Counted from the first letter of the stretch, positions 1,469 to 64,000 are shown. The stretch is 64,000 nucleotides of DNA from a virus (IMGVR_UViG_3300048577_000420:22579-86578), one strand, 5' to 3'. The notes: a model not told the origin generated them from the sequence alone. Numbers and translations: made by a program.

Positions 1469-2554
1469 CTAGGCGCGCGCCCCGAACCGGGCGAGCAGGG
1501 TCGCGCGCCCCGTAGCGGGGGCGACGCTCACGGGCGCGTCGGGCGCGTCCGTGGTGAGCGGGGCGACGCTCGGGACGTACTCCGAGCGGACCACCTGCGG
1601 ACGGGGGGCGAGGCCCTGGGCCGTCGCGCGCTCGCGCTGGGCCGCCTGGGACATCTCGGCGCGCTCCCCGTACAGGGACGCGCGCACGTCCTCGGGGATC
1701 GGCGCGACGGCGTGTGTCGTCTCGCCCGCCCATGGGAAACCGCCCGTCAGGTCACGCGCAGACGGGCGCATGTCGCGCCACGATGCGGCGTAGTCCCGTG
1801 CGTACGCGATCCGGTAGCGCTGGGACGGGGTGAGCCTGTCCGCGCTCATCGTGTGGCGCTCGATGTCCCGCACCCCTCCCAGGGTGCGCGTCTCGTCCTC
1901 CGCCATGATGCACGCGGCCCGATCGGCGACACGGTCCGTCACGTCACGGATGATCCGATCCACGGCGTCCCGGGTGGCGATGGGAGCGCGGCGCGTGTCA
2001 GGCGACACCAGGCCAGCGGCCCGAGCGACAGCGGTCCGGTTCACGCACCCGCGCGTCACGGCCTCCGGCACCGTGAGCCACGCGGACGCGACAACACGCG
2101 TCCCAGCGTCCAGCCCATCGCGCACGTCGTCCCACGACTCCCGGAGGAGGTCAGCGACCGGGCGCGACCCGTAGACACCCGGGCGCCCGTTGACGTCCCA
2201 CAGGGGGTCGCACAGCGCGTCCATCGTGTCCGGGGTGAGCGTGTCCAGGGAGACGAACGATCCCCCGCTGTTGGGACGGCACTCCGGCACGGCGTAGTGA
2301 GCGGGTGCGGACGGAATGCCCGTGACCGCCGTAGCGACCGCGTCCAGCATCGGCGCGGGCACAGCGGCCCATGCGGCCGTGCGCTGTGCCGATGTCTGCG
2401 CCGACAGGATGGCGCACGCGTGCTCCGCTACGGACGGCGTCAGGTCCTCGTCATCGGACAGTCGGTCCGTGACGCTGGCAGGCCGTGCGGCCCCTGGGTC
2501 CTTGTCGAGACCGTGAGCCGTGCGGCCCATCGTCTCGCTAGTGCTAGTGCTCAT
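1469..2554 (-). CDS. Hypothetical protein, 361 aa
   Basis: ORF track. GC3 is very high and composition is protein-like. The overlapping + strand ORF 1394..2647 is R/G-rich junk. Confidence 0.7.
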   Translation of the reverse strand: MSTSTSETMGRTAHGLDKDPGAARPASVTDRLSDDEDLTPSVAEHACAILSAQTSAQRTAAWAAVPAPMLDAVATAVTGIPSAPAHYAVPECRPNSGGSFVSLDTLTPDTMDALCDPLWDVNGRPGVYGSRPVADLLRESWDDVRDGLDAGTRVVASAWLTVPEAVTRGCVNRTAVARAAGLVSPDTRRAPIATRDAVDRIIRDVTDRVADRAACIMAEDETRTLGGVRDIERHTMSADRLTPSQRYRIAYARDYAASWRDMRPSARDLTGGFPWAGETTHAVAPIPEDVRASLYGERAEMSQAAQRERATAQGLAPRPQVVRSEYVPSVAPLTTDAPDAPVSVAPATGRATLLARFGARA

Positions 2555-2639
2555 CGTTCGATCCCTCCCGATCGGACCGGCGACACCATGCCTCCGGCCT
2601 GTTCCTCATTCTGTCTTCTTATCGGTCGGAACACCTTGC

Positions 2640-2720
2640 ACCCTTAGTGCTCATTCCGACTTTGTTACCGAACCGTTATCCACGGTAGTTACCGAATCGT
2701 TACCACTCGTGTCCCCCCCG
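2640..2720. repeat. Low-GC stretch with an 18-bp direct repeat GTTACCGAA(C/T)CGTTA(T/C)C present twice and an embedded GGTAGTTACC near-palindrome, upstream of lsr2
   Basis: Read directly from the sequence at about 2655-2700. Confidence 0.5.
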
Positions 2721-2907
2721 TTACTCGTGCCGTGACGGACCCCCCGCCGGCACCTAACGGCAGGTGGTCTCTCGCGATGGGGGCCGAGCGGATTTTCGAT
2801 AACGGGTCCTGTGCGCGCGCAGCATTGAGCCGCCGAGCGTGTCGATGACGCAGTCATCGAATCCGGCTACTCTCTCCGGGTCGAGACATCCACCCGAGGG
2901 AGAATCA

Positions 2908-3228
2908 GTGGCTACCCGCACGCATGTCGTCGTCACGGACGACATCACCGGCGCCGAGGGCGCGACCACGTACACGTTCCAGGTGGGCAAGGAGGCGTGG
3001 GAGATCGACCTCGCTGACCCGGCCCCGCTCTACGAAGCGCTCCAGCCGTTCATCGCAGCGGGGCGCAAGGTGAGCTCCCGGAGGGCCGGCCGAGTCAGCG
3101 AGCGGAACACGCACGCCGAGAGCTCGCGCATCCGGGCATGGGCCGTCGAGAACGGCTACGAGATCTCCGAGCGCGGGCGAGTTCCCGCGGCAGTGCGCGA
3201 GGCGTACGAGGCCGCCAAGGGGGCGTGA
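2908..3228 (+). CDS. lsr2: Lsr2-like nucleoid-associated xenogeneic silencer, phage-encoded
   Basis: N-terminal dimerisation-like segment VVTDDITGAEG..YTFQVGKEAWEIDL and C-terminal IRAWAVENGYEISERGRVPAAVREAYEAA with the RGR AT-hook motif typical of Lsr2. GTG start at 2908 with GAGGGAG RBS. Confidence 0.8.
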   Translation: MATRTHVVVTDDITGAEGATTYTFQVGKEAWEIDLADPAPLYEALQPFIAAGRKVSSRRAGRVSERNTHAESSRIRAWAVENGYEISERGRVPAAVREAYEAAKGA

Positions 3229-3534
3229 GGGCAGAGCCTTTCGTGGCTCTGACGTGCAGTCATGATGTCGATCCTCTGGGGGGAGTGGGGTCGCTGACTG
3301 CGGCCCCCTGCAGTCTCTGCGCGTTGTCGGGCAGGCATCGACCGTAACCAGCGGCACGAGGTGAACACGCCCGCGGGTCACTCGTCCGGACTATGCGCAG
3401 CGCCCCTCCGAGCCAGTCACGCGACCGTGTACGCGATGTGACAGGGACTTGTGTCCCAGAGATGAGCCCCTCGTCCGGGAACGGACGGGGGGCTCTCTGT
3501 CTTCATGCCAGCGTGTCGCCTCGCGCGACGCAGA

Positions 3535-3552
3535 TTCCTGCGCTAGCAGGTT
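3535..3552. promoter_or_regulatory. IR motif copy TTCCTGC-GCTA-GCAGGTT followed by the extension TCGTCGCGT, upstream of the 3599/sigma operon
   Basis: Read directly from the sequence. Confidence 0.6.
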
Positions 3553-3598
3553 TCGTCGCGTCAGCCGGGCGTGTGCCGGCTCCGGGTGGAATGGAGTC

Positions 3599-3868
3599 AT
3601 GCTCCGGAGCCGACTTCGCCCCCCTCGCGAGCAGGGTCGCGTGCTCGGATGGTGCGAGAGGCACCTGCCGATCGGCCCCACCGGGCTCCAGGTCACGCTG
3701 TCGAAGATCGGGTACGGCGTCTCCCCCGCCGTGCATCGCGTGATTCCGTGGGTCGTTCTCGTGCTGCATTCCCGCACGCTCGACTTCACCATTCCGCTCG
3801 TCCGCATTCCAGGAGCCACGTACGCCGAGCTCTGGTGGGACGACGACGAGGGCTGGGACGAGGCCTGA
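3599..3868 (+). CDS. Hypothetical 89-aa protein, translationally coupled to the sigma factor gene
   Basis: Frame 2 is protein-like with high GC3. The alternative upstream extension of the sigma frame is R-rich junk. Stop overlaps the sigma ATG (TGATG). Confidence 0.45.
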   Translation: MLRSRLRPPREQGRVLGWCERHLPIGPTGLQVTLSKIGYGVSPAVHRVIPWVVLVLHSRTLDFTIPLVRIPGATYAELWWDDDEGWDEA

Positions 3869-4611
3869 TGTACGAGGTCGACGTCGCGGAGCTGAGGGCC
3901 CTGTGGAGCCGCGCCCGCGCCGGGGATCATGCGGCCACGGAGGAGCTCGTCCGGCGGTACCACTGGCTCCCTCAGAAGATCGCCCGGTCCAAGCGGGTTC
4001 CCCCGCACTTCGATCGGGACGACATGGTGTCCTGGGCGAACTCGGGCCTGTTCGATGCGGTTCGCAAGTTCGACCCCGACAGCGGCGACGGCGCGCTGCA
4101 CGAGCACTTCATCGGGTACGCCACGCTCCGGATCAACGGGGCGATCCTCGACGGCATGAAGGCGCCCGGTCAGTCCTGGGCGACCCGCGAGGTGTGGCGC
4201 CGGCTGCGCGCGATGGAGGCCACCGAGGCCCAGGTCTCCCAGGATCTCGGTCGCCCGGCCACCCGGCAGGAGGTCGCCGCGGCCCTGGGGACGACGGTCG
4301 CCGACCTGCCCGTGTTCCAGCAGCAGGTCGGCCTGCAGGTGCCGACCCAGGGCGGCGAGGTCCTGCTCTCGGACTGGCTCCCGGACCACGAGGGCACCGA
4401 GGAGGCCGTCGAGATCTCGGAGATGGTGGACCGCGTCGCGGAGAAGGTCTCCCAGCTGCCGGCCGAGCACCTCGACGTCGTGTCCCGGCTCTTCCTGCGC
4501 GGTGAGGACGTCAAGGACGTCGCCGCCGAGGTCGGGCTGACCATCACCCGCACCCGCCGGCTCCGCGCCGAAGCGCTCCTGCGCCTGCGCGACCTGCTCC
4601 AGCAGGGCTGA
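3868..4611 (+). CDS. Sigma-70 family sigma factor (FliA/WhiG/SigF-like group 3)
   Basis: Region 2 reads FDPDSGDGALHEHFIGYATLRINGAILDGM. Region 4 HTH reads LFLRGEDVKDVAAEVGLTITRTRRLRAEALLRLR. Confidence 0.8.
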   Translation: MYEVDVAELRALWSRARAGDHAATEELVRRYHWLPQKIARSKRVPPHFDRDDMVSWANSGLFDAVRKFDPDSGDGALHEHFIGYATLRINGAILDGMKAPGQSWATREVWRRLRAMEATEAQVSQDLGRPATRQEVAAALGTTVADLPVFQQQVGLQVPTQGGEVLLSDWLPDHEGTEEAVEISEMVDRVAEKVSQLPAEHLDVVSRLFLRGEDVKDVAAEVGLTITRTRRLRAEALLRLRDLLQQG

Positions 4612-4704
4612 GTCGAGTTCCTCCAGCGTGACCGAGGGAGGTGGGGCGATGGCCAAGTGCAAGAGGAAGGGCACCAAGAAGTGACGAACCCGAGGAGGCG
4701 GCCA

Positions 4705-4881
4705 GTGGCCGACGCGACGAAGGGGCTGACCGACGAGGTCGAGCCCGAAGAGGCGGAGCCGGAGCGCGAGCTCGGCACCGCGGTGGAGGAGCCGCTGCTC
4801 CCCTACGAGGTCCGCAAGGACGGGTCCATCGCCCACTTCACCCAGGAGCGGGCTTCCCTGCAGCGAGAGGTGGGTTCATGA
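4705..4881 (+). CDS. Small acidic hypothetical protein
   Basis: GTG at 4705 preceded by GAGGAGG. Overlaps the next ATG (ATGA). Confidence 0.3.
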   Translation: MADATKGLTDEVEPEEAEPERELGTAVEEPLLPYEVRKDGSIAHFTQERASLQREVGS

Positions 4882-5264
4882 CGACCGAGGCCAGCGCCGC
4901 GGTGCTCAACCCCGGCCACATCCGGGTGCTCCCGCACGACACACCGGGCCTCTTCCGGCGCCGGGCCCGGGCGATCGAGGCCGCGGAGGATGCCGCCGAC
5001 GTGGCGGCCGCCCGTGAGGCCCTGTCCGAGGGTGGTGAGCGAGTCACGCTGGAGGAGATCCGGGCCGCGCTCGGCGCCGAGCCGGACCTCACGATCGGCG
5101 TGGACCCGGCGGCGACGCCCGCCGAGCCCACGGAGACCCCGGGCGACGAGCAGCCGTTCAACCCCGAGGCCACGCCGGAGGCGGAGGCGGAGCCGGAGCC
5201 TGACCCCGCGGCCACGCCGGAGGGCAAGCCGGAGGACGCGCCGCCGGCCGCGCCGGAGGACTGA
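4878..5264 (+). CDS. Hypothetical protein with an acidic Pro/Glu-rich C-terminal tail
   Basis: ORF track frame with internal ATG at 4878. ATGA coupling to the upstream ORF. Confidence 0.5.
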   Translation: MTTEASAAVLNPGHIRVLPHDTPGLFRRRARAIEAAEDAADVAAAREALSEGGERVTLEEIRAALGAEPDLTIGVDPAATPAEPTETPGDEQPFNPEATPEAEAEPEPDPAATPEGKPEDAPPAAPED

Positions 5265-5300
5265 CCTGGGAGGTGATCCCGCATCTGGCCGAGGCCCCGA

Positions 5301-5345
5301 GCACAGCGCTCGGGGCCTCGTGTCATCTCCGAAGGGTCAGTCGAT
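5301..5345 (+). terminator. Hairpin CCGAGGCCCCGAGC-acagc-GCTCGGGGCCTCG followed by TGTCATCTCC
   Basis: 13-bp perfect stem read directly from the sequence, at the end of the lsr2-sigma block. Confidence 0.5.
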
Positions 5346-5381
5346 CCAGGGCGTAGACCGGCCACGACGAGGAGACCCCCC

Positions 5382-5750
5382 ATGCCGCCACAGGACGAGA
5401 TCTACACGTTCGCAGGAGAGATCGGCGCCCTGCGGCAGGCGATCGAGAGCCTGACCGGTGCGGTAGGAGAGCTCAAGGCCGACGTCGGCCGCCAGGTGTC
5501 GGACCTCAAGACGGACATGGGCCGGCGCATGGAGGGCTTCGACCTGGCGCTCAAGGAGCTCGTCACCAAGGAGGCGTTCGAGGCCGAGCGCCTGCGGGTG
5601 AACCAGGAGATGGGCCACATCAAGGAGTCGGTCCAGGCCGAGAAGGAGGCCCGTCAGTCCATGTCCACCTTCCAGCGCTGGATCGTCGGGGTGCTCGTCC
5701 CGACCGTGATCGGCCTCGCCGGCCTGGCGATCAACGCCTTCAGCCACTGA
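5382..5750 (+). CDS. XhlA-like coiled-coil membrane protein (lysis-associated)
   Basis: Coiled-coil region followed by a C-terminal TM segment IVGVLVPTVIGLAGLAINAF. Sits immediately upstream of the endolysin. Confidence 0.55.
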   Translation: MPPQDEIYTFAGEIGALRQAIESLTGAVGELKADVGRQVSDLKTDMGRRMEGFDLALKELVTKEAFEAERLRVNQEMGHIKESVQAEKEARQSMSTFQRWIVGVLVPTVIGLAGLAINAFSH

Positions 5751-5808
5751 CCTCGCGCCGCGGTCGATCCCTCCCCGCGTAGGGAACCCCCGACACGAGG
5801 AGGCGGCT

Positions 5809-6912
5809 GTGGCCGCAGACGATCAGCAGTGGCTCACCGGCGCGATCCGCAAGGAGATCGCCAAGCATCACCGCGGGCCCCGCCCGTACCACAACCGCCA
5901 GGACTGCCACGTGGCGGTCTCCGAGGCTCCGAGCCTCTTCGGCTACTTCTCGGGCGCCGACGTGTGCTCGCACGCCTACGTCCGCAAGTCGACGCCGGAG
6001 CAGCTGGCCGCGGGCCTGCCGGCCGACTTCGAGCAGTACCTGCCGATCGACAACTACTCGGCGGCGGACAAGGACGGCAACAACGCCACGTTCTCCGTGG
6101 AGAGCCAGGGCGGTGTCATCGACGCCCAGAACGAGCCCTGGGACGCCGGCCAGCTGCTGCGCCTCGCGATGATCTTCGAGGAGCTCACGCGCATCCGGCC
6201 GTCCATCCAGATGAAGCTCGCGGTGGACTCGCGCGTGGGCGACAGCTCGAACGGCCTGTCGGACCACCGGCTCGGGATCGACCCGTGGCGCGTGCCGGGC
6301 GGCATGTCGTACTCGAACTCGCGGGGCAAGATCTGCCCGGGCGACGCGAAGCACGCGCAGATGCCGCAGATCCTCGCGCTGGCCCAGCAGATCCGTGCCG
6401 GCGAGCACCCGACGGTGACGCCGGCTGACCCGGCTGCGCCCGCGCCCGCTCCCGTCGGCAACGGCGGCGGCGTGAAGAACTGGCTGCAGCAGGGCGACAC
6501 CGGCCCCGAGGTCGAGGACCTCCAGCGCCTGCTCAACGCCCGCGGCGCCGGCCTGGCAGTGGACGGCTCGTTCGGCCCGGCGACCCTGGCGGCCGTCCGG
6601 TCGTTCCAGCACGACGCGGGCCTGGTCATCGATGGGCTCGCCGGCCCGGCGACGATGGCCGCGCTCCACGCCGCCCCGGCTCCGGCTCCGGCGCCCGCAC
6701 CGGTCGGCGTCCTGCGCCGCGGCTCGTCGGGCCCCGAGGTGGAGCGCCTCCAGGCGTTCCTCAACCGGAACTACCCGGCCTACTCGCGGCTCAAGGAGGA
6801 CGGCCTGTTCGGGCCGGCGACCGAGGCCGTCGTCAAGGAGTTCCAGCGCCGCTGCGGCATCGACGTGGACGGCTCCGTGGGCCCGATCACCCGATCGCGC
6901 CTGGGCATCTGA
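5809..6912 (+). CDS. Endolysin: N-acetylmuramoyl-L-alanine amidase (amidase_2/PGRP-like) with two C-terminal PG_binding_1 repeats
   Basis: HVAVSE, SHAYV and CPGD amidase motifs. Two repeats of the form GDTGPEV..LQ..LN..DG.FGP.T..AV..FQ. GTG start with GAGGAGG RBS. Confidence 0.85.
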   Translation: MAADDQQWLTGAIRKEIAKHHRGPRPYHNRQDCHVAVSEAPSLFGYFSGADVCSHAYVRKSTPEQLAAGLPADFEQYLPIDNYSAADKDGNNATFSVESQGGVIDAQNEPWDAGQLLRLAMIFEELTRIRPSIQMKLAVDSRVGDSSNGLSDHRLGIDPWRVPGGMSYSNSRGKICPGDAKHAQMPQILALAQQIRAGEHPTVTPADPAAPAPAPVGNGGGVKNWLQQGDTGPEVEDLQRLLNARGAGLAVDGSFGPATLAAVRSFQHDAGLVIDGLAGPATMAALHAAPAPAPAPAPVGVLRRGSSGPEVERLQAFLNRNYPAYSRLKEDGLFGPATEAVVKEFQRRCGIDVDGSVGPITRSRLGI

Positions 6913-7337: not shown

Positions 7338-7385
7338 GCGAAGCCCGGCCCTTCTCCTCCCGAGGGGGCCGGGCTTCGTCGTGTC
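7338..7385 (+). terminator. Hairpin GAAGCCCGGCC-loop-GGCCGGGCTTC
   Basis: 11-bp stem read directly from the sequence, after the holin. Confidence 0.45.
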
Positions 7386-7405
7386 CGGCGTCGATGGATG
7401 AGGGC

Positions 7406-7837
7406 ATGACGGCCCTCGTGAAGCTCAAGGTCGCCCAGGGGCAGACCTGGCGCCACACCTTCCTGCTGACGCGCCCCGACCCCGCGTCGACCACGGAGCA
7501 CCCGCTTCCCCCGATCCCGCTGGAGACGGTGGGCTGCACCGGCGCGATGCAGTGCCGCGCGAAGTACGGCGCCCCCGTGCTCCTGGAGCTGACCACCGCG
7601 AACGGCGGCATCGTCGTGGACCCGACCGTCGATGGCCGCGTGACGATCGTCATGACGGCTGCACAGACCGACGCCCTCGGCGCGACCGAGGACCCGGCGA
7701 AGCCGCGCCGGAGCTTCCACTACGACCTGGAGCTCACCTACCCGTCGGGCGACGTCGTGCGCGTGCTGCAGTCCCCCGAGGGCGACCCGAGCACGATCAG
7801 CCCGAACATCACGCGGAGCACCGGGGTGTCCGCGTGA
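7406..7837 (+). CDS. Hypothetical protein
   Basis: ORF track frame. ATG at 7406 has a GAGGG RBS; the upstream ATG at 7394 is an alternative start. Confidence 0.5.
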   Translation: MTALVKLKVAQGQTWRHTFLLTRPDPASTTEHPLPPIPLETVGCTGAMQCRAKYGAPVLLELTTANGGIVVDPTVDGRVTIVMTAAQTDALGATEDPAKPRRSFHYDLELTYPSGDVVRVLQSPEGDPSTISPNITRSTGVSA

Positions 7838-11482: not shown

Positions 11483-12160
11483 ATGCCCGTACCCCAGGGC
11501 GCGACCACCGACGTCATCACGGCTGACGTCTGGAACCGCCTCGTCGCGGCCGCCAACCAGGTGCAGCTCTTCCAGGTCGGCGCCAACCCCTACACCGACC
11601 TCTCGCTGCCCGGCGACTACCCCCAGGGCGTGACCGCCTTCAGCATCGAGGACGCGACGGGGTCGACCTGGCCTACGAGCTGGGCAGTCGTCGAGACCGT
11701 GCGCGTCAACACCACGCGGTGCCTGCAGCGGGCCACGAACAACCTCGGGTACGTCTACCAGCGGGTGGCGAACGGCGTCACGAACGCATGGTCGGCGTGG
11801 TCCCTCGTCGCCGGCCCCTGCGCCACCGCGGTACCCACGGCCGGCACCGGCTGGACCCAGATCCCCGGCCTGGCCGACCTGCAGTGCGTCCGCGACGAGA
11901 ACCTCATGGTCACCGTGCAGGGCATGGTGCGCCGGACCGGCGCGTCGATCACCGGCGGGTCGACGGGCACGATCATCAGCCTGCCTGCGGGCTTCCGGCC
12001 GACGAAGGCCATCTACGCGAGCCAGGCGCGTGACGGCGGCGCGGCGAACATGATCTTCGACAACACGGGCAACGTCAGCGCGGAGATCGCAGGCACCTGG
12101 AACAAGGACATCTCGTACGTGTCCTTCCACCTGACCTTCAAGGCCGCGGCAGTCAGCTAG
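11483..12160 (+). CDS. Tail fibre-like protein, paralogous to the C-terminal domain of the 8699..11335 product
   Basis: TWPTSWAVVETVRVNTTRCLQRATN here matches SWPAPYAIVETIRTGIGRCIQRLTA in the upstream gene. Confidence 0.6.
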   Translation: MPVPQGATTDVITADVWNRLVAAANQVQLFQVGANPYTDLSLPGDYPQGVTAFSIEDATGSTWPTSWAVVETVRVNTTRCLQRATNNLGYVYQRVANGVTNAWSAWSLVAGPCATAVPTAGTGWTQIPGLADLQCVRDENLMVTVQGMVRRTGASITGGSTGTIISLPAGFRPTKAIYASQARDGGAANMIFDNTGNVSAEIAGTWNKDISYVSFHLTFKAAAVS

Positions 12161-13007
12161 CGAGCGCGTCAGCCCGTCGGGGCTTGCGGCCGCGATCGGA
12201 CTGCCACAGGCGCTCCATCCAGCTGTCCGAGCGCCCCACACGCGCCGCGGCGCTCCAGGGGTCCATGCCGTGGTCGACGAGGAACCAGTACTCCTCGCGC
12301 ACCGCCTCGGTGTCCATCGCATCCTCGTCGGCCAGGATCCCGGTCTCGCCGTCCCAGAGCGGGTCGTCGAAGAAGAAGTCCCGGTCGAAGGCCTCGGGCG
12401 GCAGCCAGCCGGCGGACCGCGCGACTGCCGCCGCGTGTCTCTGTGGTCCTGGCGTCAGCGCGTGCTCGCGGACGACGTCCATGAGCCGCAGCGCGTACTC
12501 CATCGTGACCTTCGAGCGCCCGTAGCAGTTGGCGTCCCCGTGCATGAAGCGGCGCATCATCGCGTGGCCGTAGCCCATGACGGCCATCGCCTGGAACCGG
12601 CGCCGGCTCCCACCTACGGGTGCGAACCGCGCCGCGTTCTCCAGGTGAGGCAGCTCGCGGAGCTTCTGCATCGTCACGGGCGCGACGTACTCGCCCCGAC
12701 CGTGCTGGATCTTCCAGAGCTGGCTCGTGCTGATCCCCGCGGCCGTCGCCACCGCCTTCATCGAGAGGTTGTGCAGCGCGGCCTGCTTGTGGAGCACGAC
12801 CGCCGCCTCCTGGACGGGCGTGCGCCACTTCCAGTCCGGGTTCGCATGGCGGCGGAGCTCGTGCTCCTGCGCGCGCCGGTAGCGCGTCCTCCCGTCGGCA
12901 CCCACGCCTGGCCTTGGCACTCGCGCACTCCTCTCTCGATGCTGCGACGGAGAGGTTGACCTGCGGAGACGCTCGCCGTCCAGGCAGGGCGATTCCTGCC
13001 AGCGCAC
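12153..13007 (-). CDS. XRE-type HTH DNA-binding protein, leftward-transcribed (candidate repressor or regulator). Start codon uncertain
   Basis: HTH segment LHKQAALHNLSMKAVATAAGISTSQLWKIQHGRGEYVAPVTMQKL. Opposite orientation to the flanking operons. An IR copy overlaps the putative GTG start. Confidence 0.6.
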   Translation of the reverse strand: MRWQESPCLDGERLRRSTSPSQHRERSARVPRPGVGADGRTRYRRAQEHELRRHANPDWKWRTPVQEAAVVLHKQAALHNLSMKAVATAAGISTSQLWKIQHGRGEYVAPVTMQKLRELPHLENAARFAPVGGSRRRFQAMAVMGYGHAMMRRFMHGDANCYGRSKVTMEYALRLMDVVREHALTPGPQRHAAAVARSAGWLPPEAFDRDFFFDDPLWDGETGILADEDAMDTEAVREEYWFLVDHGMDPWSAAARVGRSDSWMERLWQSDRGRKPRRADALAS

Positions 13008-13293: not shown

Positions 13294-13334
13294 TGCACGG
13301 AGTTGATCCGCGCGAGGCGCGAGGTCGATGCTCC

Positions 13335-13349
13335 CGAACACACGTTCGA
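13335..13349. promoter_or_regulatory. LexA/Cheo-like SOS box CGAAC-ACAC-GTTCGA, 17 bp upstream of the helicase start
   Basis: Matches the actinobacterial LexA consensus TCGAAC-N4-GTTCGA at 14 of 16 positions. Confidence 0.55.
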
Positions 13350-15862: not shown

Positions 15863-15877
15863 CGAACATCTGTTCGA
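15863..15877. promoter_or_regulatory. LexA/Cheo-like SOS box CGAAC-ATCT-GTTCGA, upstream of the packaging operon
   Basis: Read directly from the sequence. Same GAACA..TGTTCGATG context as the boxes at 13335 and 25662. Confidence 0.55.
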
Positions 15878-25661: not shown

Positions 25662-25675
25662 GAACACGTGTTCGA
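25662..25675. promoter_or_regulatory. LexA/Cheo-like box GAAC-ACGT-GTTCGA
   Basis: Read directly from the sequence. Confidence 0.5.
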
Positions 25676-26204: not shown

Positions 26205-26365
26205 GTTCACGTCGGTGGCGGGCGCTTGGCTCCCTGGTCGCGCCCGCCACAACGAAGGCCGGAGAGCCGGCTGATTACCGGCTGAGACCCGACCTGCGCC
26301 CTCCCTGCAGAGCCCCCGCCGCCCCTCGCTACCGGGCCGCGGGGGCTCTGCGCTGTCCGCTGTCG
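26205..26365 (+). terminator. Two strong hairpins: GTGGCGGGCGC/GCGCCCGCCAC and GCAGAGCCCCCGC/GCGGGGGCTCTGC
   Basis: Read directly from the sequence. Neither has a clear T tract. Confidence 0.4.
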
Positions 26366-31177: not shown

Positions 31178-31235
31178 GGCCGGTCGAGTGCTCTCCCCGT
31201 GAGGGCCTCGACCGGCCTCTCGCATTGGACCTGAG
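31178..31235 (+). terminator. Hairpin GAGGCCGGTCGAG-loop-CTCGACCGGCCTC
   Basis: 13-bp perfect stem read directly from the sequence. Confidence 0.5.
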
Positions 31236-56291: not shown

Positions 56292-56594
56292 GTGCACGTG
56301 ATCACGCTCGGGGTCCGAATGACGGCGCAGACGGACGGTTCGCAGGTCTGTCAGGGGGACCCCGAGCTGTTCTTCTCGGAGGTCTCGGCCGACAACGTCG
56401 CCGCAGCCAAGGCGTGCAGCCACTGCCCGTTTCAGCTGCCGTGCCGCCTCGAAGGTCTGGTCAACGACGAGGAGGGCGTGTGGGGCGGCTGGTCCTACAA
56501 CCGGCGCCGCCGGATGGGTCAAGCCGGCCGCCAGCGCGCAATCGAGGAACTGCGGTTTCTGCTAGCACAGGAAAGGACGGGATTGGCCTCTTGA
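56292..56594 (+). CDS. WhiB-like (Wbl) Fe-S transcription factor
   Basis: Four Cys spaced C-X22-C-X2-C-X5-C plus the GVWGG turn motif. The alternative ATG at 56319 gives a shorter product. Confidence 0.75.
   Translation: MHVITLGVRMTAQTDGSQVCQGDPELFFSEVSADNVAAAKACSHCPFQLPCRLEGLVNDEEGVWGGWSYNRRRRMGQAGRQRAIEELRFLLAQERTGLAS
56556..56573. promoter_or_regulatory. Degenerate IR copy TTTCTGC-TAGC-ACAGGAA inside the 3' end of the WhiB-like gene
   Basis: Read directly from the sequence. 5 of 7 arm matches. Confidence 0.35.
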
Positions 56595-56845
56595 CTGACA
56601 GCGATGTCAAGATTCTCGCGGTCCAGATCACCGACTCCGGAATGGAGTTGGTCGTCGCCGCAGAGAGCGAACGAAGGAAGGGACTGGGCGTCGCCCACAG
56701 CTACTTCGTCGATTTCGCCGGAGAGCGTTTCGGGCAGCAGGCCCGCGACATTCTCGACGAGATCGAGGACCTGGCAGAACGTGTCCACGTCGGCTGGAAG
56801 CGAGAGCCGAAGGCAGAGCCCGACAAGGAGGTGAGCGAGGAGTGA
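56591..56845 (+). CDS. Small acidic hypothetical protein. Start uncertain (TTG at 56591 or ATG at 56642)
   Basis: Open frame ending with a GTGA overlap into the next gene. Confidence 0.3.
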   Translation: MTDSDVKILAVQITDSGMELVVAAESERRKGLGVAHSYFVDFAGERFGQQARDILDEIEDLAERVHVGWKREPKAEPDKEVSEE

Positions 56846-57816
56846 AGGTCTACGTCGCGGGGCCCATGCGCAAGCGCCGGGCCTTCAACTTCCCCGCCTT
56901 CATGGAGGCCACCAGCGAGCTCCTGCAGCTCGGGCACGAGGTCTTCAACCCCGCCCAGCGGGACATCGACACCGGCTTCGACCCGCTCGGCATGACCGGG
57001 TTCGAGGACCTCAACGACGGCACGCACCGCTTCGACCTCCGCGAGGCCCTCGCGGCCGACACCGCGTGGATCGCCACCCAGGCGGAAGCGCTGTGCCTGC
57101 TGCCCGGGTGGGAGGAGTCCTCGGGCGCCCGGGCGGAGGTGGCCCTCGCCGCGGCCCTCGGGCTCCAGGCTGGCGAGCTCGCCGACTTCTACATCGGGAA
57201 CACCCTGCGGCCGGCAGCGGACTTCTACGCCGCCCGGTGGAACGCGAACCCGCCCAAGGTCGAGGGCGAACCGGTCCGCATCCACCTCACGGCCAACCGC
57301 CCGGGCACGCCCGGCGCGCCCCTGAGCGTGAACCCGGGCGCAGCGTCGCTCGGCACGCTCAGCATCGAGGACCTCGGCGGCCGCGACGGAGACGGCTCCC
57401 ACGAGGTCATTCCGCAGGGCGACGAGGTGCGCTTGACCTCCTCCACCGGTGGCCAGAAGGGCGACAAGGAGGCCCGGTTCGACCTCATCCCCGCCCGGCC
57501 GCTGTGGGAGCTCGCGACCCTCTACGGCCGCGGCGCCCAGAAGTATGCCGAGCGCAACTGGGAGAGCGGCTACGAGTTCCACCTGTCGTTCTCCGCCGCC
57601 ATGCGCCACGCCTGGTCGTGGTGGAACGGGGAGGACCGCGACCCCGAGACCGGCGTCAGCCATCTCGTCAACGCCGCCTGGCACCTCCTCAACCTCGTCC
57701 AGCTCCAGATCACCCACCCCGAGCACGACGACCGCCCCCAGCGGCGTCTCCCGCTCACCATCCCGAAGGGGGCGCTCCAGCGCCGCCCGCTCCCCACCCC
57801 GAGAGGAACCATCTGA
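56842..57816 (+). CDS. Fusion protein: N-terminal nucleoside 2-deoxyribosyltransferase-like (DUF4406/DNPH1-like) domain plus C-terminal dATP/dGTP pyrophosphohydrolase-like domain
   Basis: N-terminal MKVYVAGPM..FNPAQRD. C-terminal ARFDLIPARPLWELATLYGRGAQKYAERNWESGYEF. Confidence 0.55.
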   Translation: MKVYVAGPMRKRRAFNFPAFMEATSELLQLGHEVFNPAQRDIDTGFDPLGMTGFEDLNDGTHRFDLREALAADTAWIATQAEALCLLPGWEESSGARAEVALAAALGLQAGELADFYIGNTLRPAADFYAARWNANPPKVEGEPVRIHLTANRPGTPGAPLSVNPGAASLGTLSIEDLGGRDGDGSHEVIPQGDEVRLTSSTGGQKGDKEARFDLIPARPLWELATLYGRGAQKYAERNWESGYEFHLSFSAAMRHAWSWWNGEDRDPETGVSHLVNAAWHLLNLVQLQITHPEHDDRPQRRLPLTIPKGALQRRPLPTPRGTI

Positions 57817-58793
57817 TGTTCGTCCTGCTCCTGCTGCTCGCGGTCGCCGCGATCGGCGTGGCGATCGGCTCGTGCTTCGCGCCGAAGAAGTCGTCGTACG
57901 GCACCCCGATGCGCTCGATCCTGCGGCTCGCGGCCGGCGCCCTCGCCGTGCTCGCGGTCGTCGTCGGGCTCTTCTCGACGATCTACACCCAGCGGCCCGG
58001 CGAGGCGAAGGTCATCCTCAACTGGGGTGGCGGCGTCGCCGACGTCGACACGACGCCCGGCATCAGCTTCAAGGCGCCCTGGCAGTCGGCCAGCACGTGG
58101 GATCTGCTCTCGCAGACCGCCACGTACGCCGGCGACGACAAGGCGGTGCCCGCGTACACCGAGGGCAACATCCAGGGCAAGGAGATCACCGTCTCGCTCG
58201 CCAAGGGCGTGCAGGGCGACATCGACGCCCAGATCACCTACTCGCTGGACGCCGACAAGGCGACGCTGACGGACCTCTACAACCGGTTCCGCTCCCAGGA
58301 GTCCTTCACCCGCCAGATCATCCAGACCAACAACCTCTCCGAGATGCGCGAGGGGCCGAAGGAGATGGACGCCGTCACCTTCCGTGGTGAGGGCCGTGCG
58401 TCGGTGGAGCAGTCGGTGAAGGCCGCCCTCAACGATATCTACCGCCCGTACGGCGTGACGGTCTCGCAGGTCACCATCCAGGGCATCCGGTTCTCCGACA
58501 GCGTGGAGGCCTCGATCCAGGAGGCCGCCGCGGCCGCCCAGCGCCAGGTCACGGCCCAGGCCAACCTCGCGGCGACTCAGATCGACGCCCAGGCCCAGGT
58601 CGTCCAGGCCGAGCAGGCGGCGAAGGCGGCCGTCGCGAAGGCCCAGGGCGAGGCGGACGCGAACGCGCTGCTCGCCGCGTCGCTCACCCCCCAGGTGCTC
58701 CAGCAGCACTACATCGACGCCCTGAAGGCCGGCACGGTGTTCGTGGTGCCGGAGGGCTCGAACCCGCTCGTCCAGGTCCCCAGCGGCCACTGA
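57816..58793 (+). CDS. SPFH/band-7 (stomatin/prohibitin/HflC-like) membrane protein
   Basis: N-terminal TM helix, SPFH core, and a C-terminal Ala/Gln coiled coil. ATGA-coupled to the upstream fusion gene. Confidence 0.65.
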   Translation: MFVLLLLLAVAAIGVAIGSCFAPKKSSYGTPMRSILRLAAGALAVLAVVVGLFSTIYTQRPGEAKVILNWGGGVADVDTTPGISFKAPWQSASTWDLLSQTATYAGDDKAVPAYTEGNIQGKEITVSLAKGVQGDIDAQITYSLDADKATLTDLYNRFRSQESFTRQIIQTNNLSEMREGPKEMDAVTFRGEGRASVEQSVKAALNDIYRPYGVTVSQVTIQGIRFSDSVEASIQEAAAAAQRQVTAQANLAATQIDAQAQVVQAEQAAKAAVAKAQGEADANALLAASLTPQVLQQHYIDALKAGTVFVVPEGSNPLVQVPSGH

Positions 58794-59432: not shown

Positions 59433-59719
59433 TGACCACCCCGGAGCCCGGCCAGGTCTGGGCGGACAACGACCCCCGTGTTGCCGGTCGGACGATCCAG
59501 ATCGCCGCCATCGAAGGCGACGTGGCCCTCTGCACCGTGCTGACCAACAGCGACGCGGACCAGCGCGACATCGACCTGCTCGGCTCTCACGGGCCTCGCG
59601 GTCGGTACGTCGCCGGCGGCTGGGTCCCGGGCGACCGCCGAGGCGCCACCACCCGAGTCCGGCTCTCGCGGCTGCGGCCGACGTCGACCGGCTTCCGACT
59701 GATCGAGGAGACACGATGA
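59432..59719 (+). CDS. Hypothetical protein
   Basis: ATGA coupling. Confidence 0.45.
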   Translation: MTTPEPGQVWADNDPRVAGRTIQIAAIEGDVALCTVLTNSDADQRDIDLLGSHGPRGRYVAGGWVPGDRRGATTRVRLSRLRPTSTGFRLIEETR

Positions 59720-60078
59720 CGTTCGCCGTCGGGGACAAGGTCCTGATCGTCTGCCACAACCGGCCGTCCCAGGCCCCGGTCGAGGCCGAGGTGCTCTCGG
59801 TCGCGCGCAAGTACCTCTTCGCGCGCCCGCTCGGCGGTGGCCCCGCCTCGGGCGCGCGCTTCGACAAGGAGACGGGTGCCGAGAAGGACGGCGGCTTCTA
59901 CCACCGCACGATCTACACCCCGGAGGCCCTCGCCGAGAAGCGCGAGCGCGACACCCTGGGGCAGCGCCTCGCGTTCGCCACGCGCCCGTCCAACTGGACG
60001 AGGCGCCTCAGCCTGGAGGAGCTCCGCGCGGTGGCGGCCATCGTCGCGCCCGTCGCCGACGAGGAGGCGAGCCGCTGA
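59716..60078 (+). CDS. Hypothetical protein
   Basis: ATGA coupling. Confidence 0.5.
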   Translation: MTFAVGDKVLIVCHNRPSQAPVEAEVLSVARKYLFARPLGGGPASGARFDKETGAEKDGGFYHRTIYTPEALAEKRERDTLGQRLAFATRPSNWTRRLSLEELRAVAAIVAPVADEEASR

Positions 60079-62341: not shown

Positions 62342-64000
62342 GTGGAACTGGCCTTCTACGGCCGCGTGTCGACAGAGGACGCGCAGGACCCGGAGGCGTC
62401 CCGCGCCTGGCAACTTCGCCGGGCGCGGGACCTCGTTGAGCCGCTCGGCCACCGCATCGTGGTCGAGTACTTCGACATCGGCCAGAGCCGCTCCCTCCCC
62501 TGGAAGCGCCGCCGCGAGGCGAGCCGCCTGCTTGAGGACGTCCAGGGCGCCGGGCGCACGTTCCAGGGCATCGTCGTCGGCGAGCCCCAGCGCGCGTTCT
62601 ACGGCAACCAGTTCTCGCTGACCTTCCCGGTGCTGGTCCACTACGGCGTCGCCCTGTGGGTGCCGGAGGTCGGCGGCAAGGTCGACCCGGACTCCGAGGC
62701 GCACGACCTCGTGATGTCCCTCTTCGGCGGCATGTCGAAGGGCGAGCGGTCCCGCATCCGCACGAGGACCCGCCTGGCGATGCACGAGCTCGCCGCGAAC
62801 ACGGACCGCTTCCTCGGGGGGCGGCCGCCGTACGGCTACCAGCTGGCCGACGCCGGGCCGCACCCGAACCCCTCGAAGGCGGCGGCGGGCCAGCGGGCGC
62901 ACCGGCTGGAGCCCGACCCCATCACCGCGCCGCACGTGCGCACGATCTTCCACGCGTACGCCCAGGGTGCCGGCCTGCGCGAGATCGCCGACTCGCTCAC
63001 CTCGGCTGGGGTGCCCTCGCCGTCGGCGTACGACCGGCGCCGGAACTCCCACCGGGACCCTCGCGGCTGGTCGCACAGCGCCGTGCGCGCGATCCTGGCG
63101 AACCCGGCCTACAGCGGCGTCCGGGCCTGGGGCAAGCAGGAGAAGTACGAGACCCTCATGGACGTCGAGGACGTCGCCCTGGGCACCCAGGTCCGGATGC
63201 GCTGGCGCGACGCCGACGCGTGGGTGCGGCCCCACAGCAAGACGCACGAGGCGCTGGTGGACGACGACACGTTCGCCACCGTCCAGGGTCGCCTCGGCGC
63301 GCCGGGGCACAACGCCGACGCGACCCGGAAGCCCCGGGAGTCGGCCCACGTCTACACGCTGCGCGGCCTGCTTTACTGCGGCCTCTGCGGGCGCCGGATG
63401 CAGGGCGCGCGTCGCCCGAACCGCACCGAGGGCAGCGACCGCATCCTCTACCGCTGCGAGCTGATGCGGGGCCGGTCCATCGGCGACGAGTGCCCGGGCC
63501 ACCCGAAGACCGTCTACCTCAACGAGGCCGAGGTCGTGCCGCAGATCGACGCCTGGCTGGGCGGTCTGATGGCCGACACCTCGTGGCTCCTGGACTCCCA
63601 GCGGGCCGTCCGCGAGCCCGCCGAAGTGGTCGCGCTCCGCGAGCGCGCACGGGAGGTGGACGCCGCCCTGGCGAACCTCATGGCCGCCATCGAGCGGGGC
63701 GTGATGTCCGAGGCGATCCTCAGCCAGCTCCAGCAGCGGGAGGCCGAGAAGGCCGGGATCGCGGCCCGTCTGGCGGCCGTTGACCGGCCTCGGGAGGGCA
63801 TGTCGGCCGCCGACATCCGGGCCGTCATGGAGGCGTTCGGGGGCATGGCGGAGGTGCTCGCGCAGGCGACTCCGGAGGAGCGCGCGGCGGCGTATCAGAC
63901 CGTTGACCTGCGGCTTGACTTCGACCCGGGTACCAGGGAGATCGCCGCTGCGGCCGACCCGACCGCGTGTGTCGCTAACCGTGTCCGGAGGGGGACTTGA
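62342..64000 (+). CDS. int: Large serine recombinase (phage integrase), truncated at the window end
   Basis: N-terminal resolvase catalytic domain YGRVSTEDAQ with catalytic Ser. Recombinase domain and Zn-ribbon Cys (CGLCGRRM..C) further downstream. Confidence 0.85.
   Translation: MELAFYGRVSTEDAQDPEASRAWQLRRARDLVEPLGHRIVVEYFDIGQSRSLPWKRRREASRLLEDVQGAGRTFQGIVVGEPQRAFYGNQFSLTFPVLVHYGVALWVPEVGGKVDPDSEAHDLVMSLFGGMSKGERSRIRTRTRLAMHELAANTDRFLGGRPPYGYQLADAGPHPNPSKAAAGQRAHRLEPDPITAPHVRTIFHAYAQGAGLREIADSLTSAGVPSPSAYDRRRNSHRDPRGWSHSAVRAILANPAYSGVRAWGKQEKYETLMDVEDVALGTQVRMRWRDADAWVRPHSKTHEALVDDDTFATVQGRLGAPGHNADATRKPRESAHVYTLRGLLYCGLCGRRMQGARRPNRTEGSDRILYRCELMRGRSIGDECPGHPKTVYLNEAEVVPQIDAWLGGLMADTSWLLDSQRAVREPAEVVALRERAREVDAALANLMAAIERGVMSEAILSQLQQREAEKAGIAARLAAVDRPREGMSAADIRAVMEAFGGMAEVLAQATPEERAAAYQTVDLRLDFDPGTREIAAAADPTACVANRVRRGT

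Follow-up and report, generated by a model that had tools for sequence, protein, structure and literature searches.

A 64,000-nucleotide stretch of viral DNA (IMGVR_UViG_3300048577_000420:22579-86578, hereafter the window) encodes an Lsr2 protein and, farther along the same strand, a sigma-70-family factor, which raises the question of whether the two regulators form one unit and of what they control. The first-pass annotation of this DNA had taken them, together with three small open reading frames (ORFs), for a cassette that either rewires host transcription or drives the phage late genes. Operator arrays and phage-encoded Lsr2 proteins and sigma factors are already known kinds; three things appear to be new, namely the retention of lsr2 and a sigma gene as neighbours, a clade of sigma-28-type factors restricted to uncultured temperate actinophages, and an invariant orphan partner of the sigma factor. 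Structural, lysis and replication genes run all through the window, which is a temperate prophage encoding a serine integrase and lodged in a Cellulomonadaceae-like chromosome. The genes were modelled from a frame plot of the G+C content at third codon positions (GC3), the window as a whole having 70.9% G+C, and independent gene calls on the source contig match this model except for the start of one small ORF (3641).

The sigma factor, its partner and its candidate promoters

The sigma gene (3868-4611, + strand, GC3 0.95) encodes 247 residues. The protein scores 50.3 against the sigma-70 superfamily model TIGR02937 (cut-off 42.9) and 25.5 against Sigma70_r4 (threshold 24.1); its score against Sigma70_r2 (20.4) remains under 24, yet the alignment is full-length, and Sigma70_r3 is also under threshold. 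The best subfamily is FliA/WhiG (TIGR02479) with 88.3 bits, for a cut-off of 189.6, followed by RpoS (60) and SigF/SigB (~43), and the nearest solved proteins are the WhiG of S. venezuelae (6PFV) and the FliA of Aquifex (1RP3), both with E about 1e-16. The earlier assignment to the group-3 sigma-70-family factors is borne out by these matches, on which the protein is a group-3 sigma-28-like factor that fails the curated FliA/WhiG membership score. Like FliA, SigD and WhiG (6PFV, 1RP3, 6PMI, 9WSM), which are its best sequence matches, it has the sigma-2, -3 and -4 domains, lacks region 1.1 and keeps the residues that read CGA. Unlike them, it is phage-encoded with no FlgM or RsiG gene nearby, it bears two insertions in region 2 (DSGDGALHEH and APGQS) and its region 4.2 recognition helix reads TRTRRLRAE, vs ESRVSQLHSQ in the sigma-28 family. 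The clade that it belongs to is made up of about 20 metagenomic proteins sharing 48-64% identity, whereas identity to the cellular FliA/WhiG is at most 38%. No homologue was found in 185,579 reference genomes, and a tblastn search of 50,697 phage records returned no relative above 31% identity.

The residues that contact the promoter were mapped on the P. aeruginosa sigma-28 open complex (PMC12784957). All seven readers of the -10 and extended -10 elements are kept (P. aeruginosa/phage: Y76/Y84, R80/R88, D87/D95, W94/W104, R97/R107, R101/R111 and R104/R114). These residues, which are mostly invariant in the phage clade, contact -11A by stacking and recognise the CGA core along with the extended -10. 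R82, D93 and H100 of the Pseudomonas protein are replaced by N, S and W, and the -35 readers in region 4.2 are altered (S224 to T, Q228 to R). Regions 2 and 4 had been described as intact; both are indeed present, with the -10 readers kept and the -35 readers of region 4.2 changed. Within the clade, per-column identity is 0.87 for sigma-2 and 0.84 for sigma-3.0, and 0.59-0.64 for sigma-4; the protein of one relative (L006) even has a deletion of six residues in the helix-turn-helix (HTH) of region 4.2. Since the -10 readers are kept and sigma-4 is altered and poorly conserved, CGA-type promoters dominated by their -10 element are predicted. The same alteration and poor conservation of -35 recognition make the hijacking of a host regulon unlikely, and the proposal that host transcription is rewired is thus not supported: changed sigma-28 -35 readers in the least conserved region of the protein argue against the mimicry of a flagellar sigma factor.

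The order lsr2, non-coding gap, small ORF and sigma gene is found in six lineages (the window and the relatives L004, L006, L008, L101 and L102), whose sigma factors are only 48-64% identical and whose Lsr2 proteins are 39-49% identical. In L004, these four elements have remained side by side even though the lysis cassette has changed both side and strand. This retention of order supports the Lsr2-sigma pair as a real unit. All these lineages are metagenomic, the order being absent from isolated phages, and two of the sigma relatives lie in IMG/VR genomes of 80.9 and 84.0 kb. The conserved pairing of Lsr2 and a sigma factor has not been described before, and neither has a sigma-28-type factor with an obligatory orphan partner in an actinobacterial phage.

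This partner is an ORF of 89 codons (3599-3868, + strand) that overlaps the sigma gene by 1 nt through a TGATG and is translationally coupled to it. Its coding signal begins at about 3580 and the lengths of its homologues favour the start at 3599 over that at 3641. The homologues adjoin or overlap the sigma gene in seven of seven lineages, including a further one, L015; such linkage shows a partnership with the sigma factor but is no evidence for an anti-sigma function. An exhaustive search of 1.84 billion cluster representatives retrieved only two remote relatives, another homologue search gave the ORF itself alone and a tblastn search of phage records was empty. Neither this ORF nor the two small ORFs downstream of the sigma gene has a Pfam, NCBIfam or PHROG match, even at E-values up to 5. 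The AlphaFold2 (AF2) model of the 89-residue protein is of modest confidence (predicted local distance difference test, pLDDT, 67) and consists of one helix followed by four strands, for which there is no Foldseek match with E below 0.2. The flanking ORFs had been suggested as anti-sigma or anti-anti-sigma partners, but an anti-sigma identity (FlgM, RsiG) finds no backing in the sequences of the three ORFs or in the fold of the 89-residue protein. The orphan partner is nonetheless a candidate new sigma-binding protein, in a phylum without a known anti-sigma factor for the flagellar WhiG1. In L015, the small partner ORF and the sigma gene are separated by an extra ORF of 76 codons (3323-3553).

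The two downstream ORFs overlap each other (58 codons, 4705-4881, and 128 codons, 4878-5264, both on the + strand) and make up a lysis-proximal module. All three small ORFs had been described as coupled, which is true of the upstream one only: the 58-codon ORF begins 93 nt past the sigma stop, and the 128-codon ORF overlaps the former and not the sigma gene. The downstream ORFs have a conserved motif, RE(V/L)GT..E..(I/V)P(F/Y)E(V/I)RKDGSIA(H/Y)F. In L004, their homologues head the lysis cassette, ahead of the endolysin gene, in the opposite orientation and across lsr2 from the sigma gene. This arrangement indicates that they belong with lysis and, since they move with its cassette, their role as sigma partners is not supported. 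As a separate observation, the 58-codon ORF of L015 has an AAREAL..G..V(S/T)LEE segment that is part of the 128-codon ORF in the window, a case of domain shuffling among small ORFs.

No site emerged from a scan of 2300-5900 for standard sigma-70 promoters. The hexamer GTCGA(G/T) recurs just after terminators, 30-55 nt before start codons. Past the 128-codon ORF, a terminator hairpin (5291-5319) is followed by GTCGATCC (5340-5347) and GTAGAC on the + strand, 42 nt upstream of a gene for a 122-residue membrane protein, and the same layout of terminator and element occupies the orthologous place in L008, L015, L101 and L102. A second GTCGATCC (5763-5770, + strand) lies 46 nt upstream of the endolysin gene, which is preceded by GTCGAGTG or GTCGAGTA in L101, L102 and L004; three of the four matches to GTCGATCC in the window are intergenic and on the + strand. 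The succession of terminator, GTCGAK and GTAGA before the lysis genes is thus kept at the orthologous position in five lineages, in flanks that have diverged. Directly past the sigma stop and upstream of the 58-codon ORF there is an GTCGAGTT element (4612-4619, + strand), also found before the homologous ORF in L015, L004 (- strand) and L101. Further GTCGA(G/T) sites are present at 2841, before lsr2, and at 13324 and 25654, before two operons with LexA boxes. In four phages, co-directional upstream intergenic positions account for 3.06% of all positions and hold 24 of the 395 occurrences of this motif, which was picked after inspection of the data (p = 0.0014); for the controls the counts are 3 of 387 (GTCGA(A/C), Fisher p = 3.8e-5) and 0 of 144 (CTCGA(G/T)). 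That the sigma factor may read GTCGA(G/T) is therefore a supported hypothesis rather than a result. Of the two roles originally proposed, driving the phage late genes is the better-fitting one, as GTCGA(G/T), a family-specific element with a sigma-28-type CGA core, stands before lysis and other late genes. GTTCGAT was also considered as a -10 element and dropped, since three perfect LexA-type GAAC-N4-GTTC boxes, of which it is the right half, account for it better.

The best explanation for these data, to which we give about an even chance, is that a repressor-controlled phage sigma factor drives -10-dominated late promoters, with Lsr2 as a separate neighbouring regulator, and that the lsr2/sigma region is the central control region of a whole prophage of ~75-85 kb. 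There would be two separate units: lsr2 with its own control region, and the operon of the 89-residue protein and the sigma factor behind a palindromic operator. In the lysogen, a phage repressor bound to the palindromes would keep the sigma operon off, a candidate being an HTH protein encoded at 12153-12905. Upon induction the sigma factor would be made along with its small partner protein, and it would direct the host core RNA polymerase to the GTCGA(G/T) -10-type promoters with little or no need for a -35 element. Given the location of these elements, after terminators and before the lysis genes, some rightward operons and lsr2, the sigma factor would act as a middle/late switch, and probably as the one that turns on the phage late genes. 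Lsr2 would act on the few low-GC control regions of the prophage, its own included; it could do so in lysogeny, as a silencer akin to CgpS, or during lytic growth, the latter in view of host Lsr2 being reportedly required for productive mycobacteriophage infection. If the sigma factor does read GTCGA(G/T), it would define how an entire group of uncultured temperate Cellulomonadaceae phages switches on its late genes, and it would be a natural example of a sigma-28 scaffold released from -35 recognition.

Several observations weigh against this reading. Besides having been chosen after the data were seen, GTCGA(G/T) is a common hexamer, with 258 occurrences in the window; the one at 31183 is part of a terminator stem and the one at 26362 is too near a start codon. 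Canonical sigma-28 promoters have GCCGA where GTCGA is found here. The sequence CGATAA occurs twice in the 64 kb, both times in the lsr2 intergenic region and on opposite strands, a pattern to be expected if the regulon were far smaller or if the host WhiG1/FliA were the reader. No resemblance to any sigma partner could be detected in the small ORF. Finally, L015 has the small ORF and the sigma gene without Lsr2, so that a functional link between Lsr2 and the sigma factor is not obligatory.

Among known phage systems, one parallel may be T4 gp55/gp33: the position of the sigma gene, suited to the control of later gene classes, the predicted -10-dominated promoters and the small obligatory partner gene suggest the likeness. 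Microbacterium phages of clusters EC and EI have annotated sigma factors (PMC7302621) and, as in the window, repeated intergenic motifs accompany them; tblastn against the phage records shows no similarity between these sigma factors and the present one. The latter differs from known phage sigma factors in being of the sigma-28 type, in belonging to a temperate phage and in having no tblastn similarity to any actinophage isolate.

lsr2 and the control regions around it

The lsr2 gene (2908-3228, + strand, 106 codons) has a GTG start and the ribosome-binding site (RBS) GAGGGAGA. Its GC3 is 0.90 from 2908 vs 0.57 for the 2839-2907 extension, the longer ORF that starts at 2839 being without coding signal. 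The product matches PHROG 1223 and the two Pfam domains of Lsr2, for dimerisation (PF11774, 40.0 bits, threshold 29.6, residues 25-78 of the 129-residue ORF) and for DNA binding (PF23359, 54.4 bits, threshold 26.9). It also aligns with the DNA-binding domain of M. tuberculosis Lsr2 (2KNG/6QKP; SERGRVPAAV vs STRGRIPADV), including the AT-hook-like RGR motif. Both domains above threshold and the motif confirm the first-pass identification as Lsr2, the alignment against 2KNG/6QKP included, and the protein is best explained, from its sequence, as a nucleoid protein that would bind AT-rich DNA, an activity to which the position of the lowest-GC patch of the window, directly upstream of the gene, speaks indirectly. 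Its two-domain structure, its RGR motif and its location in a temperate phage or prophage are those of CgpS (C. glutamicum CGP3) and of other actinobacteriophage Lsr2 proteins (PMC5137423, PMC8612146), and a marked GC drop just upstream, read as autoregulation, is shared with the phage lsr2 genes of clusters A, BD and J. The differences from CgpS and the known phage Lsr2 proteins are the Cellulomonadaceae-like host family and the adjoining sigma operon; a published survey of lsr2 neighbourhoods reports integrase, repressor and nucleotide-metabolism domains, with no mention of sigma factors.

The region upstream of lsr2 is a divergent intergenic control region of 353 bp (2555-2907) with GC minima and conserved blocks. 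It had been singled out as the stretch of lowest GC, and it is indeed the minimum of the window at each size tried: 47% (100 nt), 55% (200 nt) and 59.7% (350 nt), vs 70.9% overall. The other GC minima (~1240, 44983, 49580 and 56556) are also intergenic control regions. The GC drop upstream of phage lsr2 is not new here, since it has been reported and taken as autoregulation (PMC8612146). Two direct repeats were also correctly noticed in this region, although they are of 17 nt and not 18: GTTACCGAAYCGTTAYC has exactly two copies in the window (2664-2680 and 2688-2704), 24 nt apart, for 0.10 expected. They lie (2664-2704, + strand) within a cluster of YCGTTAY boxes (2673, 2697 and 2718 on the + strand, 2799-2805 on the - strand), to which CCGTTAG (2754-2760, - strand) adds a fifth box. 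Four of the five YCGTTAY matches in the 64-kb window fall within the 133 bp between 2673 and 2805, and homologous boxes exist in L006 and L008.

The box array and its adjoining blocks are conserved at the nucleotide level in four lineages whose proteins are only ~50% identical. The conserved blocks are CCCCCCGGTTA.TCG, AACGGCAGGT..CTCGCGATRG, GGATTTTCGAT(T)AACGG and GTCGATGMC-N3-GKCATCG. In every lineage whose left flank is covered, the boxes co-occur with a divergent gene of 353-455 codons, and L004 has neither the boxes nor that gene. This pattern of conservation favours sequence-specific recognition over generic AT-rich binding; the suggestion that the repeats are ordinary AT-rich targets of Lsr2 is therefore not supported, as they are part of a conserved cluster tied to the divergent gene. 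The cluster points to a sequence-specific protein as its likely ligand or, alternatively, it could be an origin of replication or a partition site. In the window, the divergent gene (1469-2554, - strand, GC3 0.88) is the first of the leftward arm and encodes an orphan protein of 361 residues; its start at the ATG at 2554 is backed by an RBS (GGAGGG) and by the N-termini of its homologues, which are 48-51% identical and present in L006 and L008. No match was found in Pfam, PHROG or NCBIfam, the AF2 model is poor (pLDDT 53) and a fold search with it was empty.

Closer to lsr2, a conserved non-coding block (2756-2809, + strand) is kept in the window, L006, L008 and L102; it consists of AACGGCAGGT..CTCGCGATGG, a variable spacer and GGATTTTCGATAACGGGTCC. 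The second CGATAA (2797-2802) lies within this block, for which GATG-N15-TTCGATAA is a possible reading. The block was also examined as a structured RNA, a reading that is ruled out by a positive, that is penalising, covariation term in RNAalifold and by many broken pairs. The sole hairpin upstream of lsr2 to survive RNAalifold (2843-2859) belongs to a palindrome, GTCGATGAC-GCA-GTCATCG, which bears the GTCGAT element (2841-2859, + strand), lies 49 nt upstream of lsr2 and is retained by four lineages, among which one pair has changed in a compensatory way. GTCGAT precedes lsr2 as it does the late genes, which suggests lytic-phase expression of lsr2; in this element and in the sequence-specific boxes the gene differs from known phage lsr2 genes, and a lytic-phase role of its product is thus possible.

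Downstream, lsr2 is not immediately followed by the sigma gene, as had been stated: 640 nt separate them, with a hairpin, a terminator, an operator and the 89-codon ORF in between. About 370 nt of this distance (3229-3598) have no coding signal and the remainder is the ORF. The non-coding stretch has, on the + strand, a hairpin (3232-3251), GTCGATCC (3267-3274) and a strong terminator with 14 pairs and a T-rich tail (3464-3495); the segment 3232-3495 has no frame bias and an RNA fold z-score of -2.5, and 3229-3598 may encode a short non-coding transcript. A gap is found in all the relatives, with sequences unrelated to one another. That of L008 has, at 7362-7415, two tandem copies of CTACTGCAACAC and then an inverted copy, which make up a long perfect inverted repeat without counterpart in the window. 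The best explanation is that lsr2 is a transcription unit of its own, with its own upstream control region and terminators.

The gap also carries, 47 nt upstream of the small ORF, an 18-bp palindromic operator, TTCCTGC-GCTA-GCAGGTT (3535-3552), which L004, L006, L101 and L102 have in the same place. It belongs to a family, TTCCTGC-N4-GCAGGAA, of which the window has 16 or more good copies, for the most part between genes and frequently right after terminators (1190, 3535, 12993, 13275, 15835, 21084, 23379, 25620, 29569, 36774, 41255, 45108, 45135, 50215, 54876, 56556 and about 62210). Allowing up to one mismatch, CCTGC-N4-GCAGG occurs 37 times in the window, vs 5.8 expected. Since the half-sites vary independently, a DNA operator fits better than an RNA stem. 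The family was likewise ruled out as a promoter of the sigma factor: it is palindromic, its half-sites (CCTGC or CGTGC) vary independently and neither a -10 nor a -35 element accompanies it at a fixed distance. The conserved inverted repeats of phiC31 and the stoperators of cluster A mycobacteriophages are operators with many copies across the genome, mostly at the starts of transcription units. The family described here looks like an operator array of that type: the layout is similar, placement before a key regulator included, and the TTCCTGC-N4-GCAGGAA sequence differs. The self-contained cassette of the original proposal is not supported, as the sigma operon shares its operator with about 16 other sites and lsr2 has its own terminators.

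A reasonable candidate for the binder of these operators, and for the immunity repressor, is the HTH protein mentioned above. Its gene (12153-12905, - strand, 250 codons) is the sole reverse gene of the right arm, the protein has a weak N-terminal HTH and a weak match to a repressor PHROG, and the adjacent intergenic region has two operators and a LexA-type box. Perfect GAAC-N4-GTTC sites, of the LexA/SOS-box type, number three (13336-13347, 15864-15875 and 25662-25673) for 0.62 expected; each lies between genes and ahead of a rightward operon, an arrangement suggesting that lytic genes are under direct SOS control.

Competing regulatory schemes

Some of the alternatives concern what the sigma factor reads. 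It could have a narrow regulon limited to two divergent promoters in the 353-bp region (CTAAG-N-ACCGATAA to the left and GATG-N15-TTCGATAA to the right) and turn on the leftward early or host-takeover genes and lsr2, the late genes being left to other factors. Both CGATAA copies of the 64 kb are in this region, each facing a gene, and the CGA-reading residues are kept. The leftward sigma-28/WhiG-like candidate (2619-2647, - strand), in which ACCGATAA follows the TAAG of CTAAG after 16 nt, can be compared with the actinobacterial WhiG consensus, T(A/C)AA-N16-GCCGATAA or CTCA-N16-17-GCCGAACT (PMC12871210): it fits at 3 of 4 and 7 of 8 positions with the right spacing, and there are comparable sites at the equivalent place in L008 (CTAG-N18-GCCGATAG) and L006 (CTAG-N16-GCCGACAC). 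To the right, the block kept in four lineages around a variable spacer has the layout of a promoter. Nevertheless, a single CCGATAA is at chance level (1.14 expected), the rightward -35 resembles neither TAAA nor CTCA, and CGATA(G/A) direct repeats or YCGTTAY protein-binding boxes are equally good readings of the conserved boxes. Moreover, L004 and L101 have the sigma factor without the block upstream of lsr2, within the sequence covered. We consider such a restricted regulon unlikely. A doubtful elaboration of the preferred scheme is that the 89-residue protein and the sigma factor would make up a two-protein late-transcription device independent of -35 elements, like T4 gp33/gp55 on a sigma-28 scaffold, which would read GTCGA(G/T) after terminators; lsr2 would be one of its targets and Lsr2 a lytic-phase factor of the chromatin or replication compartment rather than a prophage silencer. 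It is far less probable, indeed quite improbable, that the gene is a host-mimicking moron, a captured WhiG1/FliA by which the host's flagellar and chemotaxis genes would be diverted or blocked, for instance for lysogenic conversion or superinfection control in a motile member of the Cellulomonadaceae. FliA/WhiG are the closest cellular families, Cellulomonas commonly has a flagellar cluster and WhiG1 (PMC12871210), and the -10-reading residues are kept, but identity to cellular homologues does not exceed 38%, vs 48-64% within the phage clade, and the score is 88 for a FliA/WhiG cut-off of 189.6. The changed -35 readers, the relaxed or partly deleted region 4 and the position of the gene, with a phage operator ahead of it, the lysis genes directly after it and a phage-only orphan partner always beside it, are also at odds with a moron.

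Other alternatives concern Lsr2 and its relation to the sigma factor. Lsr2 could be a CgpS-like silencer made in the lysogen, which would nucleate on the low-GC regions and silence the sigma operon and both arms; the silencer would be placed by the master activator, and the sigma factor or the repressor/LexA circuit would counter-silence upon induction. The phage is temperate, lsr2 genes are enriched in temperate phages with an upstream GC drop read as autoregulation (PMC8612146), the lowest-GC patch lies upstream of lsr2 with the other minima in intergenic control regions, and terminators insulate lsr2 from the sigma operon. On the other hand, the GTCGAT element before lsr2 is suggestive of lytic-phase expression, the low-GC patches extend over no more than 100-350 bp, with a GC content that is still 47-60%, and the operator/repressor system and the LexA boxes already account for the maintenance of lysogeny. 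We retain this role as tentative; it is compatible with the explanation preferred above, a repressor-controlled sigma factor driving late promoters, and differs from it only on the timing and targets of Lsr2. It might also be that no functional coupling exists, the two being independent regulators at a mosaic junction whose order reflects the common descent of a small phage group. L015 lacks Lsr2 beside the sigma gene, lsr2 and the sigma operon are separate transcription units and the content of the gap is wholly different between lineages, as this view would have it. The order has nevertheless outlasted the move of the lysis cassette to the other side and strand in L004, as well as divergence down to 48% identity in the sigma factor and 39-49% in Lsr2, and we find such an absence of coupling hard to favour.

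The prophage and its host

The lysis genes that follow the sigma operon encode the 122-residue membrane protein (5382-5750, + strand) and the endolysin (5809-6912, + strand). At the other end of the window, a large serine recombinase gene (62342-64000 and beyond; L020 11222-20534) marks the right end of the prophage, the junction with the host being just past the window end. Beyond it, the 440-kb source contig has an AI-2E transporter gene and the mutasome genes dnaE2, imuB and imuA'. Since these host genes (dnaE2, imuB and the transporter) start just past the integrase, a reading of the contig as a jumbo phage is ruled out. Identity of the host DnaE2 is 76-78% with the Actinotalea protein and 70-73% with the Cellulomonas one, from which we take the host to be Cellulomonadaceae-like and not a Streptomyces.

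A whole-DNA comparison with the 50,697 phage records returned a sole match of 99 nt, in Microbacterium phage Zeta1847, inside the small ORF, and a search of the GTDB representative genomes found no prophage relatives. At gathering thresholds there is no Rfam family in the window, nor is there anything meaningful in 2400-3900 at E-values up to 5.

The replication/early arm includes a WhiB-like gene (56319-56594; Pfam Whib, 46 bits), so that the prophage has Lsr2, WhiB and sigma proteins. Close to it, in the protein encoded at 56842-57816, DUF4406 is joined to a dATP/dGTP diphosphohydrolase N-terminal domain (106 bits), which hints at nucleotide-pool manipulation or DNA modification. According to precomputed Pfam matches, the same arm encodes a Band_7/SPFH-domain protein (57816-58793) and a Phage_ProQ_C-like protein (59716-60078), possibly an RNA chaperone.

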